This document shows, piece after piece, positions 19,438 through 42,309 of a stretch of 47,106 bases of DNA (position 1 is the first letter of the stretch; every line of letters begins with the position of its first letter). Source of the stretch: Candidatus Parcubacteria bacterium (lineage in GTDB: Bacteria; Patescibacteriota; Minisyncoccia; Phycocordibacterales; PALSA-1337); the NCBI GenBank assembly GCA_028286835.1, contig JAQBQT010000025.1:1-47106 (forward strand), given 5' to 3'. A program made the position numbers and the translations under genes. Under the pieces are notes generated by a model. That model was not told the origin of the DNA. It made no database searches and worked only from the letters and a program-made list of their open reading frames with translations.

Positions 19438-20175
19438 ATGAAAGAATTCCAGACAACTATTTTCACTGACGGATCGTCGCGCGGGAATCCAGGACCAGGT
19501 GGATGGGGCGCGCTCGTCATCGCTGAGGATACAGTTCCTTGCGTGAAGGAGCTCGGCGGCGGAGAGGCTGACACGACGAACAACCGCATGGAGATCAAGG
19601 CCGCCATCGAAGGCCTCCGGCATTCGGATAAGAATTCAAAAATTATCGTGAACACGGATTCGTCATACCTTATAAATGGCATCACGAAGTGGGTGAAGGG
19701 TTGGAAGCGGAACGGCTGGAAAACGAAAACAAAAGACGAGGTGCTCAATCGCGATCTCTGGGAGGAGCTTCACGACCTAGCCGAGGGTCGCACGATCACG
19801 TGGTCGTATGTCGGAGGTCATGTCGGCGTTCTAGGCAACGAACGATGCGATCATATTGCAACGGCCTTTGCTGATGGCCGCGAATTGAAGCTCTACGACG
19901 GCCCGCTCGCCGGCTATGACCTTCCGAATGTACTCGATGTTTCACGCAATGAAATGAAGGCGGTCACAAAAAAATCCAGCTCGTCCCATTCGCGCGCACC
20001 GGCTCATTCATATGTGAGCTCTGTCGGGGGAGTGATAGAGACTCACCGCACATGGGCTGAATGCGAGAAGCGCGTAAAAGGTGCGCGGGGAGCCAGATAC
20101 AAAAAATCCACGAGTGCAGAAAATGAAGCGAGCATCATCGAAGAGTTCGGGGCGTTCGGAAATGAAATTGGGTAG
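19438..20175 (+). CDS. rnhA: Ribonuclease HI with C-terminal hybrid-binding (viroplasmin-like) domain
   Basis: FTDGSSRGNPGPGGWG, TNNRME, TDSSY, NRDLW, GNERCD; C-terminal TWAECEKRVKG..GARYKK. Confidence 0.93.
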   Translation: MKEFQTTIFTDGSSRGNPGPGGWGALVIAEDTVPCVKELGGGEADTTNNRMEIKAAIEGLRHSDKNSKIIVNTDSSYLINGITKWVKGWKRNGWKTKTKDEVLNRDLWEELHDLAEGRTITWSYVGGHVGVLGNERCDHIATAFADGRELKLYDGPLAGYDLPNVLDVSRNEMKAVTKKSSSSHSRAPAHSYVSSVGGVIETHRTWAECEKRVKGARGARYKKSTSAENEASIIEEFGAFGNEIG

Positions 20176-20184
20176 CGCGTTTAT

Positions 20185-20244
20185 TTTTCTTCACGAAAAA
20201 TTGAATATTTTTTGAAGCGGATTTGAACCGCTTTCGGATAGTAT
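20185..20244 (+). promoter_or_regulatory. comEC upstream box, copy 1 (TTGAA x3 at 11-bp period plus -10)
   Basis: TTGAA at 20201, 20212, 20223; -10 TAGTAT 20239-44; ungapped match to 22193-22252. Confidence 0.7.
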
Positions 20245-20250
20245 GTGCCC

Positions 20251-21627
20251 ATGCGAAAGGGCACATTTATTTTTTGGAGTCTGTTTGTTGCGGCTGCGGC
20301 GGTGCGCATCGGCATGTCGTTCACGAGGTCGCTTCCGGATGCGGGTGCGTGCCTGATGCATGTCGACTTTGGAACGGGCACCGTTGCTGAAGATCCTGAA
20401 CGCAAAGATTCAGGACAGGTATTCGTCGTGGCTGCGGAAAAAATTTTTGTGATGCCGCAGGATCTGTGCGCGCACGATATCCTCATCCGTATCAAGACGA
20501 AGCTCTATCCGCGGTTCGCGTATGGTGATCGCATCGTTTTCACGGGCAAGCTCTTAGCACCAAGGAATTTTTCTAGTGACAGCGGCCGGGTCTTCGACTA
20601 TCAGGGATACCTCGCGAAGGACGACGTGTTCTATGAGATGAAAAGCGCGGTCGCGGTCATGGCTACAAGCTCAGGAAAGTTTTCTCTGCCGTCATCATTG
20701 TTCACTATCAAGCGACGCTTTGTCGCGCACCTCGAGCGCGCGCTTGGTGAGCCGCATGCGGCTCTGGCAGCGGGGCTTGTCGTGGGGGAGAAGAGCGCGC
20801 TCGGCAAAGATCTTCTTGATGACTTCCGCATCGTCGGGCTCATCCATGTCGTCGTCTTGTCCGGTTTCAATATCACCATCGTCGGCATCGCGCTCCGTCG
20901 GCTTTTGTCGCGGCTGCCACGGGTGTGGGGCATCGCAGTGGGCGGCATCGGGATCATGCTCTTCGGCATCCTCGTAGGAGGAGGCGCGACAGTGGTGCGC
21001 TCATGTTTCATGGCAGGCATCGCTCTCGTCGCCGATCTGATCCGCCGCGACTACAGCGTCCATCGGGCGCTCGCGTTCGCGGCCCTCATCATGCTCATCC
21101 AGAATCCCTTCATCCTGCTTCACGATCCTTCTTTCCAGCTCTCATTCCTGGCGACCGTCGGGCTCCTCCTCTTGGCCGGACCTGTCGAGTCCAAGCTCGG
21201 CTGGATCCCGGATGCGTTCGGCATGAGGGGCACTGTCGCTTCGTGCTTGGCAACGCAGATCTTTGTCTCGCCCTTCATTCTCTATATGATGGGGCAGATC
21301 TCTCTTATCGGTATTCTGGTCAACATCATTGTTCTCCCATTCATTCCCGCCACGATGCTTCTCGTGTTCCTCACTGGCGCGCTCGGCTTTGTTTCATATC
21401 CGCTGTCGCTCGCCGCCGGATGGGGAGCGCATCTTCTGCTGCAGTACGAATTATTCACTGTGACCCATTTCGCCAGGCTCCCGTTCGCCGCAATGCACAT
21501 ACCACCCTTCTCGGGGTGGTATGTGGGCGCATTCTATATTTTGTTTTGTGCCGCGTATCTTTTTAGAGGGAAGCCCCGCTCGCTTTTTGAAAATTCTGCT
21601 CGATCACGGACCAGTTCAGATTATTGA
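20251..21627 (+). CDS. comEC: ComEC/Rec2 DNA-uptake channel (OB-like plus Competence domain, no beta-lactamase domain)
   Basis: FDYQGYL, GLIHVVVLSGFNI, VVRSCFMA, NP, SFQLSFLAT; start is GTG 20245 or ATG 20251. Confidence 0.93.
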   Translation: MRKGTFIFWSLFVAAAAVRIGMSFTRSLPDAGACLMHVDFGTGTVAEDPERKDSGQVFVVAAEKIFVMPQDLCAHDILIRIKTKLYPRFAYGDRIVFTGKLLAPRNFSSDSGRVFDYQGYLAKDDVFYEMKSAVAVMATSSGKFSLPSSLFTIKRRFVAHLERALGEPHAALAAGLVVGEKSALGKDLLDDFRIVGLIHVVVLSGFNITIVGIALRRLLSRLPRVWGIAVGGIGIMLFGILVGGGATVVRSCFMAGIALVADLIRRDYSVHRALAFAALIMLIQNPFILLHDPSFQLSFLATVGLLLLAGPVESKLGWIPDAFGMRGTVASCLATQIFVSPFILYMMGQISLIGILVNIIVLPFIPATMLLVFLTGALGFVSYPLSLAAGWGAHLLLQYELFTVTHFARLPFAAMHIPPFSGWYVGAFYILFCAAYLFRGKPRSLFENSARSRTSSDY

Positions 21628-22168
21628 AGAAGTCCTCGATGTAATTCTTCTTGCCGGAAGGCTGGTAGTCTGCGACATACGAATGCTCCCACATATCCAT
21701 GCCGAGGATCATCGTGCAGTTCTGCAGCTGGCCGAGGTGCTGCTCGTCCACCCATGAATTGAGGAGGCGCTTGTCAGCATTGTCATACCAGAGGACCGCC
21801 CAGCCGATGCCGCGCGTGAGGCCGAGCGCTTTGAATTCCATGAGCCACGCATCGAATGAGCCCCATGTTCCGGCGATGAGCTTCCTGAGTTGGCTTGAAT
21901 CGGACAAGGCAGCAGCCCCGCCCTGCAGGGAAGCGAAATACGCTTCATGATTGCGCATGCCGTTGAATTCGAAGCTGAAGCGGCGCATCAGCTCTCCGAG
22001 CGCGTACGCATTTTTTTCGGAGTCCTTCTTGCATTCGTCGATCTTCTCGAAGATAGTATTGGCGTTCTTCACATAGCCCTGATAGAGCTTGAGATGCTCC
22101 TCTATGGTCTTTGCCGAGATGCCCTTGAGGGCGGGGATCGTAAACGTCTGCGCGGTGAATGGTTTCAT
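21563..22168 (-). CDS. Fe/Mn superoxide dismutase family protein
   Basis: EEHLKLYQGYV, NHEAYF, GIGWA, DMWEHSY: all four metal ligands present. Confidence 0.9.
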   Translation of the reverse strand: MKPFTAQTFTIPALKGISAKTIEEHLKLYQGYVKNANTIFEKIDECKKDSEKNAYALGELMRRFSFEFNGMRNHEAYFASLQGGAAALSDSSQLRKLIAGTWGSFDAWLMEFKALGLTRGIGWAVLWYDNADKRLLNSWVDEQHLGQLQNCTMILGMDMWEHSYVADYQPSGKKNYIEDFFNNLNWSVIEQNFQKASGASL

Positions 22169-22192
22169 GGTTGTATTGGTTATGAATTTAAC

Positions 22193-22252
22193 TTTTCTTC
22201 ATGAAGATTTGAATCTTTTTTGAACACGCCTTGAACTGCTATTTATTATACT
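22193..22252 (+). promoter_or_regulatory. comEC upstream box, copy 2
   Basis: TTGAA at 22209, 22220, 22231; -10 TATACT 22247-52, overlapping a minus-strand TATAAT for sod. Confidence 0.7.
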
Positions 22253-22261
22253 CGATTTGTA

Positions 22262-37089: not shown

Positions 37090-37872
37090 CTAATTTGCGA
37101 GGGGAAGTATGAGGCTGAATGTGGATCCTTTGCCAACTCCTTCCGAATAGGCCTGGATGCTTCCGCCGTGCCGTTTCATAACACTCTGTGCCAGGAATAG
37201 CCCTACGCCAAGGCCTTCCGTGTCCATGGACTGAGCATCCTTGGTCCGATAGAACTTGCTGAACATGTGCGACAAGTTGTGCGGGTCGATACCTATTCCA
37301 TTGTCCGTGACGGACAGGATGGCCTTGCGCTTGTTCACGGTTATATCTACCGAGATGTTGCGGCCCGGAGGGGTATAGGAGCAGGCGTTCTCCATGAGCG
37401 TGCCGATGACGAAATCCAAACGCGGCCGGTCTGCTTTGACCATGACTTCAGGCTGAACGCTGGTGAGGGACATGAAGAGGTTCTTTTCATGGAATGCGGT
37501 CTTTGATGTTTCCATGATGCTGCGGGCAAGATCGCAGAGATTGAGGACCTCGAAATTATATGTCGAGTGGCCCTTGCCCGCGGCGTCCGTGAGCTCGACC
37601 AGCGTGCCGGTGAGCTTGATGAGATTCTCATTGGATTTTCTCAGGTCATCGAGCTGCTGCTTCTTATATTGGTCCTGCTCTTCAGTGATAAGCCCTTCAG
37701 TGGTCCACTTGATCTGGGTGAGGGGAGTGCGGAATTTATGAGCGATGATGGTGATGAACTCATACTTCAGGCTCTCGTTCTCGCGCAGCTTGCGGTATAT
37801 GATGACTCCGACAAGGCTCGTGACCGCTACGATGACGATTGCTGCGAGAGAAATAAGGATGAGTGTGTCCAT
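37090..37872 (-). CDS. Orphan histidine kinase (TM-HisKA-HATPase_c)
   Basis: H-box AHKFRTPLT, N-box ENACSYT, DNGIGI, F-box FSKFYR, GLGVGL, GKGSTF. Confidence 0.93.
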   Translation of the reverse strand: MDTLILISLAAIVIVAVTSLVGVIIYRKLRENESLKYEFITIIAHKFRTPLTQIKWTTEGLITEEQDQYKKQQLDDLRKSNENLIKLTGTLVELTDAAGKGHSTYNFEVLNLCDLARSIMETSKTAFHEKNLFMSLTSVQPEVMVKADRPRLDFVIGTLMENACSYTPPGRNISVDITVNKRKAILSVTDNGIGIDPHNLSHMFSKFYRTKDAQSMDTEGLGVGLFLAQSVMKRHGGSIQAYSEGVGKGSTFSLILPLAN

Positions 37873-41748: not shown

Positions 41749-42309
41749 ATGTCGAACCACGATTCGCTGCAATTAACCTTCGACAAGCTGTTCCAGTCCG
41801 AAGCAGACGCTATATTCAGGTTCTGCGTCTTAAGGGTATCGGATAGGGAACAGGCGCGGGATCTCGTTCAGGAGACGTTCGTACGTCTCTGGCAGACGCT
41901 TCAGAAAGGGACGGAAATGACCAACGCACGGGCATTTCTCTTCACTGTAGCTCACAGGCTCATCATTGACTGGTACCGCAAGAAAAAGGCGGTTTCAATG
42001 GAAAGCCTATCGGACGAGGCCACCGATGAATCATATGATCCGGCAGATGAAGGAACTCTCCCGGACAATCTCGAATTGGGGTCAGAAGGCCGCTTTCTTA
42101 TGAGCAAGATCAAAGAATTGAATGACTCCTATCGTCAGGCGGTATTTTTAAGATATGCGGAGGGGCTTTCTCCACCGGAGATAGGCAAAGTCCTGGGCAT
42201 ATCGGCGAACGCCGCATCAGTGAGGGTCAACCGCGGGATCCAGGAATTGCGGCAATTGACCGGGTACGATATCATGGAGTCCGAACAACCATCTCCTTCG
42301 AATACATAA
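41749..42309 (+). CDS. ECF-type sigma70 factor
   Basis: Region 2 DLVQETFVRLW..RAFLFTVAHRLIIDWYRK; region 4 EGLSPPEIGKVLGIS..SVRVNRG. Confidence 0.93.
   Translation: MSNHDSLQLTFDKLFQSEADAIFRFCVLRVSDREQARDLVQETFVRLWQTLQKGTEMTNARAFLFTVAHRLIIDWYRKKKAVSMESLSDEATDESYDPADEGTLPDNLELGSEGRFLMSKIKELNDSYRQAVFLRYAEGLSPPEIGKVLGISANAASVRVNRGIQELRQLTGYDIMESEQPSPSNT

Follow-up and report, generated by a model that had tools for sequence, protein, structure and literature searches.

Phased half-site arrays at a split ComEC locus of a Parcubacteria genome, candidate activator sites of an orphan OmpR/PhoB-type response regulator

The window analysed here is a stretch of 47,106 nt from a Candidatus Parcubacteria bacterium (GenBank assembly GCA_028286835.1, contig JAQBQT010000025.1), which forms contig C5 of a 698-kb genome (G000; 27 contigs, 96.6% complete). 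It carries the two parts of a split ComEC DNA-uptake protein as separate genes, each preceded by a 60-bp box with TTGAA repeats. The original prediction regarded the two boxes as a candidate shared operator of a DNA-uptake regulon, bound over the -35 region by one regulator, possibly LexA or a response regulator. Here, we follow these boxes through the genome, the genus and the order, and weigh which protein, if any, is likely to read them.

The genes 3' of the two boxes are, as had been stated, the ComEC channel gene and a separate gene for the metallo-beta-lactamase (MBL)-like part of ComEC (Table 1). The channel protein, which lacks an MBL domain, matches the ComEC models of NCBIfam with scores below their equivalog cut-offs. 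The MBL-like protein has no Pfam match at E <= 0.01; in solved structures of ComEC, it aligns to the C-terminal, beta-lactamase-like domain (9ic4_A, E 4.1e-07; 30bt_A, residues 547-747), and its Atlas model has the MBL fold, resembling clusters of Lactamase_B and of full-length ComEC at TM 0.74-0.79. Both parts of a split ComEC are thus present, namely a channel part with Competence and DUF4131 domains and a separate C-terminal part with the MBL fold. In the MBL nuclease domain, metal is bound by an HxHxDH-type motif. Most of the metal-ligand positions are replaced in the stand-alone protein, with 'sthpdadhigg' of the solved domain aligned to 'vpntdtrsvtg' and 'phhgs' to 'sqstg', and the protein is probably not a nuclease. 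The superoxide dismutase gene (sod) between the two ComEC genes runs on the opposite strand, and the reading frames of comEC and sod, which converge, have their last 65 nt in common (21563-21627).

Table 1. Features of the split ComEC locus, in coordinates of the window.
Feature	Position	Strand	Remarks
rnhA (RNase H)	19438..20175	+	Pfam RNase_H, E 1.6e-42; stop 9 nt ahead of array 1
Array 1	20185..20228	+	Four 11-bp-phased half-sites (starts 20190, 20201, 20212, 20223), read as two 22-bp units
-10-like hexamer TAGTAT	20239..20244	+	10 nt past the last half-site hexamer, 6 nt ahead of the comEC ATG
Hairpin at comEC start	20243..20276 (stem-loop 20243-20266)	+	comEC ATG in the loop, then a T-rich tail; flagged as terminator-like by the scan
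ComEC channel gene, 458 aa	20251..21627	+	Pfam Competence PF03772, E 3.4e-48; DUF4131 PF13567, E 6.1e-10; no MBL domain
Fe/Mn superoxide dismutase gene (sod)	21563..22168	-	Pfam Sod_Fe_C, E 2e-21, and Sod_Fe_N; separates comEC from the MBL gene
Array 2	22182..22236	+	Five 11-bp-phased half-sites (starts 22187, 22198, 22209, 22220, 22231)
-10 region of the MBL gene	22244..22252	+	TATACT (22247-22252) 10 nt past the last half-site; TATTAT (22244-22249) overlaps it
Stand-alone ComEC C-terminal MBL-like homologue, 304 aa	22262..23176	+	N-terminal membrane anchor; structure matches

Both boxes were confirmed at 20185-20244 and 22193-22252, with 39 identities in the first 50 positions of the ungapped alignment and 42 in all 60. 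Their TTGAA repeats start at 20201, 20212 and 20223 in box 1 and at 22209, 22220 and 22231 in box 2, i.e., at a spacing of exactly 11 bp, and the -10-like hexamers stand at the same offset in both. TTGAA-N6-TTGAA occurs four times in the window, always within the two boxes (100 dinucleotide-preserving shuffles gave a mean of 0.14, and none reached four), and TTTTCTTCAYGAA is found exactly at these two places only, both in the window and in the whole genome. The TTCAyGAA 'near-palindrome' of the original prediction is merely the first half-site of an array, its trailing GAA being present in four of the nine arrays described below, as read by eye from an 11-nt print. Array 2 comprises two full 22-bp units and one extra upstream half-site; a sixth TTNA, counted by the phase scan, falls within its -10 region. 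A sigma-70 scan of the boxes yielded a sole -35/-10 match at box 2 (TTGAAC, an 18-nt spacer and TATTAT; 9/12) and no such pair at box 1. In the stretch 22169-22261, array 2 has its edge only 14 nt from the start codon of sod (22168, minus strand), so that any sod promoter must overlap array 2 and the MBL promoter; a perfect TATAAT can be read on the minus strand (22250-22245), where it overlaps the -10 of the MBL gene on the plus strand.

A matrix derived from the two boxes retrieved a third strong copy on contig C4 and weaker copies elsewhere in the genome, and 33 of the 60 positions are shared by the three copies that belong to rpsF, comEC and the MBL gene. The real repeat proved to be a 22-bp unit of two unlike 11-bp half-sites, with the consensus aTtTcTTcAtgAgGATTTGAAn, present in two to four tandem copies per array. 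Under a matrix-free definition of an array, as at least four TTNA at an exact 11-bp phase, there are exactly nine arrays in the 698 kb, compared with none in the reversed genome. A position weight matrix (PWM) of the 22-bp unit detected 20 unit pairs, which fall at the nine arrays and one weak site (10 places in all), and none in each of 10 Markov shuffles; these counts are partly circular, the matrix having been built from these very arrays, and the phase count is used instead. As read from the nine printed sequences, the number of half-sites is four, six or eight in eight of the arrays and five in array 2, and the last half-site hexamer is separated from a TAnnnT -10 element by 10 nt in eight arrays and by 9 nt in the remaining one. 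Most arrays are devoid of a usable -35; the two hexamers closest to the -10 lie 9-10 nt and 20-21 nt from it, and thus neither can serve as one. At three promoters, those of comEC, the MBL gene and a 104-aa gene on C25, the start codon follows 6-9 nt past the -10, which suggests that the corresponding mRNAs would be leaderless or nearly so. What had been proposed as an operator over the -35 region is better put as a set of putative activator sites standing in for the -35.

Besides the ComEC channel gene (array 1) and the ComEC MBL-like gene (array 2), the arrays precede rpsF-ssb-rpsR-recA(-efp), a 73-aa open reading frame (ORF) followed by scpA-scpB-ftsW-murG, a gene for an LCAT-like secreted protein of 948 aa, a 64-aa ORF followed by a DD-carboxypeptidase gene, the gene for the 104-aa protein, which has no assigned family and is divergent from dnaB, a stretch of ~600 nt on C15 that follows a histidine kinase gene and contains no clear gene, and a non-coding stretch that starts behind a response regulator gene on C21. 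The suggestion of a DNA-uptake regulon finds support insofar as, in addition to the two ComEC genes, an operon that includes ssb and recA is preceded by an array, an outcome named in the original prediction. It does not stand as a regulon confined to uptake: five of the nine arrays serve other functions, with chromosome and division genes, envelope proteins, small proteins of no assigned function and RNA among the targets, and dprA (C23:5378-6328) has no array.

Conservation of the arrays extends well beyond this genome. The phased half-site pattern is present in 14 of 24 genus genomes, with almost nothing found for the same pattern read backwards. The preferred letters of the half-sites are species-specific (TTGAAC/TTCAYG, TTTATC/TTCATC or GTwATC), TTnA and the phasing being their sole constant features. 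In the genus, four or more phased half-sites were found upstream of comEC in 23 of 28 relatives, upstream of the MBL gene in 12 of 16, and within 200 nt downstream of the regulator gene in 26 of 29 orthologs, compared with 0/28 and 1/29 in reversed sequences (the latter at the regulator place), 0/560 in shuffled sequences and 4/300 in windows drawn at random from these loci. Relatives widely keep the gene order rnhA-comEC-sod-MBL, with sod on the opposite strand, and the synteny of rnhA and comEC holds in most of the 30 genus loci. It also holds in all five distant families examined, which were picked because they have arrays, and an array lies between the two genes in three of the five. Given that the arrays recur at orthologous places in the genus and in other families, the element is neither a neutral duplication nor private to this genome, and the two boxes can be regarded as copies of one regulatory element that links both ComEC genes, as originally proposed.

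Two relatives, G013 and G019, were followed through 20 array regions. In these genomes, arrays are again found ahead of comEC and the MBL gene, of rpsF-ssb-rpsR, and of the genes for the LCAT-like and 104-aa proteins, as well as ahead of comM (~510 aa; L120 in G013 and L129 in G019) and an operon with a pilB/pilC-like ATPase, which extends the DNA-uptake and DNA-processing genes with arrays beyond those of G000; further arrays stand ahead of MazF-like genes and genes of no assigned function, and scpAB-ftsW is behind an array in G013. No comM was found in G000 by tblastn, the gene being either lost or unassembled. G019 has ~15 nearly identical arrays, some of them ahead of tRNA-like sequences (L127, ~380-460; L131, 404-476) that end in GGTTCGATCCC- and GGGTTCGACTCCC-type arms. 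ARAGORN made no tRNA call for the tRNA-like sequences behind two of these arrays, and Rfam returned one weak tmRNA match (24.6 bits, the gathering score being 47).

Candidates for the reader of the arrays were sought in G000 among the families Trans_reg_C, Response_reg, LexA_DNA_bind and Sigma70_r4. Trans_reg_C has one match in the genome (G000:C21:20425-21117), the gene for a response regulator of 230 aa with a receiver and a winged-helix domain and with no adjoining kinase gene. One of the nine arrays begins 28 nt past its stop codon. The protein scores 172.9 bits versus an equivalog cut-off of 296.2 for PhoB, and a contig search with it gave generic OmpR-family matches from other phyla only. 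In 80 other families of the order, for which an array was taken as five phased half-sites and a regulator match as E <= 1e-20, there are arrays in 9 genomes and regulator matches in 27. Arrays occur in 7 of the 27 genomes with a regulator match versus 2 of the 53 others (p 0.006), and in 7 of the 10 best regulator matches versus 2 of the remaining 70 (Fisher p 1.3e-6, for a cut chosen post hoc). Based on the geometry of the arrays, their linkage to the regulator gene and the phyletic association, we tentatively assign them to this OmpR/PhoB-type regulator, which is the best candidate among the binders originally suggested. At a probability of roughly 60%, the arrays are tandem activator sites of the orphan regulator, whose predicted regulon is rich in, and not limited to, DNA-uptake genes. 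That the regulator binds the arrays, that it activates and does not repress, and where transcription would start are what we infer from these data.

Presumably, each 22-bp unit would accommodate a head-to-tail dimer of the regulator, with all molecules on one face of the helix, and the promoter-proximal molecule would replace the -35 contact and recruit RNA polymerase, as in class II activation at pho boxes. Once phosphorylated, the regulator would co-induce both ComEC parts (the channel and the MBL-like protein), rpsF-ssb-rpsR-recA, scpAB-ftsW-murG, the envelope proteins and the RNA adjacent to the regulator gene. Similar arrangements are known. The Pho boxes of Escherichia coli are described as direct repeats of 8 bp, separated by linkers of 3 bp, that stand 10 bp upstream of the -10 element TAN3T (PMC1906773). 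Those of PhoB in E. coli and SphR in Synechocystis resemble the present arrays in being 11-bp tandem repeats, at least two to three in number, at 10 bp from TAN3T and with no -35, and the cyanobacterial half-site CTTAACCT resembles the TTTAAC/CTTGAAG half-sites seen here (PMC1906773). Likewise, Mycobacterium tuberculosis PhoP is described as a head-to-tail dimer that overlaps the -35 element, with cooperative dimers on repeated boxes and the downstream dimer over the -35 (PMC11825685). The mixed regulon predicted here for one regulator is also like those of global OmpR-family regulators such as PhoP. Unlike M. tuberculosis PhoP, however, the regulator in question is the sole member of its family in a 0.7-Mb genome and has no adjacent cognate kinase gene, and unlike Pho boxes, the arrays are found at DNA-uptake, chromosome and envelope genes rather than at genes for phosphate scavenging. 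A classical Pho regulon is rejected: neither PhoU (PF01895) nor a PstS-type PBP_like_2 protein (PF12849) was found in the 96.6% complete genome, and the regulator is well under the PhoB cut-off. By analogy, the element is one that would work like a pho box outside any Pho regulon.

Several observations weigh against the assignment to the orphan regulator. Its recognition helix, SNTVEAHIRNLRKK, hardly varies within the genus, yet each species has its own preferred half-site letters. The array at the regulator gene is located on its downstream side and would drive a different transcript, so that the adjacency could be plain synteny with that RNA gene. G109, a genome that is 96% complete, has long arrays and no regulator match at the above threshold, and three of the 10 best regulator matches come with no strict arrays. 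No kinase partner emerges either, the link between an array and a histidine kinase gene (a seven-transmembrane (7TM) kinase gene on C15) being present in one of 17 orthologs, that of G000 itself (20 loci were counted, of which three were dropped as their C-terminus did not align). Finally, the regulon is mixed, with ribosomal protein and cell division genes in G000 and tRNA-like and tmRNA-like sequences in G019, dprA is left out of it, and the arrays could belong to a general class of strong promoters, which we deem unlikely for the reasons given below. In G045 (L102, L071), half-sites of the form GTTATC/GTAATC (GTwATC) accompany the recognition helix AHMARLRKK, in place of AHIRNLRKK elsewhere, which may reflect a co-change of reader and site, this being one data point compared by eye.

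The nearly invariant helix facing variable half-sites and the case of G109 would both be expected if another sequence-specific protein bound the arrays and the regulator were adjacent only because the array-driven RNA gene has a conserved position. We consider such a protein improbable, though not strikingly so, because the 11-bp period, the 22-bp units and the 10-nt gap to the -10 are the signature of the OmpR/PhoB family, and the arrays accompany close orthologs of the regulator across families. Alternatively, no dedicated regulator would be involved if the arrays marked a polymerase-intrinsic class of promoters for strongly expressed genes, either through phased T-tracts that curve the DNA or make contacts like those of UP elements or as targets of an alternative sigma factor. 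T-runs indeed recur every 11 bp, phasing and TTnA are kept across species as the other letters drift, rpsF-ssb-rpsR is among the targets, as are an RNA that looks abundant and the tRNA-like and tmRNA-like sequences of G019, and the 0.7-Mb genome has six Sigma70_r4 matches (on C6, C21, C5 and other contigs), five of them above the family cut-off. Within a genome, however, letters other than T are sharply conserved from locus to locus and two unlike half-sites alternate, so that curvature alone is an insufficient explanation, whereas a sigma factor recognizes a single -35 at a set distance rather than four to nine repeats, and the spacing of the promoter-proximal hexamers fits no -35. The element is, moreover, found at only nine promoters in ~690 genes. 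Taken together, this makes a promoter class of that kind an unlikely explanation.

LexA, which had been put forward as a possible regulator of the boxes, is rejected as their binder. The letters GAAC do occur in some half-sites, including a GAAC-N7-GAAC in box 2 as originally noted, recA and ssb belong to an array-preceded operon, and the genome encodes two LexA-like proteins, from a 188-aa ORF with, by eye, a winged helix and an S24-like C-terminal part and from a paralog; the LexA regulon of Patescibacteria was reportedly studied by Sanchez-Osuna et al. in 2017. Both paralogs, however, have a GAAC-N4-GTTC palindrome upstream (C16:120-131 and C19:6153-6164), the inverted repeat of a Gram-positive-type LexA (SOS) box, separate from the arrays; the one on C16 precedes a small ORF (189-395) located ahead of lexA. 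TGAAC-N4-GTTCA is kept within 350 nt upstream of lexA in 19 of 30 genus loci, and none of the 30 has an array on either strand. LexA thus has its own ordinary operator. Furthermore, the half-sites of most species (TTTATC/TTCATC) contain no GAAC, and arrays of up to eight or nine repeats at promoters with no -35 fit an activator rather than a repressor, which leaves direct-repeat SOS boxes as a very remote prospect. Equally little credence is due to a neutral local duplication, or to a promoter cassette that spreads with no shared regulation: copies from one genome closely resemble each other, as in G019 and at the three loci of G000 compared above, but the arrays occupy orthologous positions in the genus and in other families despite diverged sequence, and their distance to the -10 is fixed.

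Two of the promoters are associated with RNA structure. The arms of the hairpin at the comEC start covary in 30 genus orthologs, the native pairings having a mean of -7.56 kcal/mol versus -4.42 kcal/mol for chimeras in which the upstream arm of one species was joined to the coding arm of another, and none of 2000 permutations reached the native value. The upstream arm falls between the -10 and the ATG; hence, a transcript from the array promoter would lack it and a read-through transcript from rnhA would contain it. A reasonable reading is that the hairpin may be a terminator that insulates comEC from upstream transcription. The RNA behind the regulator gene (on C21 in G000; L085:2309-2480) starts with a conserved hairpin, GGTTATGnGTCGACATAACC. 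Over 28 of 30 loci, two wrongly anchored ones having been dropped, 86.9% of the cells are paired, compared with 28-53% in slid controls; double changes affect six of the eight pairs, and none of 500 shuffles reaches the covariation score. Conserved stretches (CTTAyNAA, GTGATGA, ATCTTCC and GGCAGGC) are also present, the G000 copy has a fold z of -3.2, and several further families of the order have similar hairpins with a GTCGA loop behind their orthologs of the regulator gene. The RNA has no Rfam match at E <= 0.1. Among the signal recognition particle (SRP) RNA models, RF00169 (Bacteria_small_SRP) has no match in 41 genus genomes including G000, and RF01854 (large SRP) none in G000; the SRP RNA of the lineage, if present, appears to be too divergent for these models. 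For this reason, the regulator-adjacent RNA was considered as an SRP RNA and set aside; only its 5' hairpin is a consensus structure, and we claim no identity for it. Elsewhere in the window, a Sigma70_r4 match lies at 42109-42255 and a histidine kinase gene at ~37096-37431 on the minus strand.

Regulators that bring DNA-import genes under common control are known from several bacteria, such as ComE and ComX in streptococci, Sxy/CRP-S in Haemophilus and Vibrio, and CtrA in Rhodobacter. The system described here is similar in that a single putative regulator would control comEC, ssb and recA and, in relatives, comM and the operon with the pilus ATPase and platform genes. It differs in the regulator family and the motif, in the lack of the element at dprA, and in the inclusion of division, envelope and ribosomal genes. 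Within the Patescibacteria, natural competence has been demonstrated in cultivated Saccharibacteria, where comEC is needed for transformation, and the authors of that article name competence activity across Patescibacteria as a key open question (PMC10633639). In the literature searched, no response-regulator motif or comEC regulon is described for Patescibacteria. The lineage's own protein cluster is commonest in Minisyncoccota.

More tentatively, the orphan regulator might be a master switch of natural competence and cell-surface remodelling in this lineage of ultra-small bacteria, a possibility that goes further than the assignment of the arrays and is less likely to be true. Such a switch would combine arrays that replace the -35, nearly leaderless promoters under its direct activation (those of both ComEC parts and of ssb/recA and, in relatives, of comM and a pilus operon), a conserved small RNA from the position behind the regulator gene as a post-transcriptional arm and a comEC promoter nested in a terminator hairpin, at which rnhA read-through would stop, so that only transcripts started by the regulator, lacking the upstream arm, would enter comEC. 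As the order of rnhA, array and comEC and the pair of regulator and RNA recur in other families, this system would be older than the genus.

Collectively, the architecture is of the classical activator-site kind and is new as a regulon and for the lineage. The value of the finding therefore lies in the regulon and the lineage rather than in a new principle, the mechanism being a classical one. For the Parcubacteria studied here, it provides a concrete hypothesis that could be tested cheaply, with one regulator, one motif and nine promoters, and defined promoter parts that could serve to induce competence or to drive genes in relatives.

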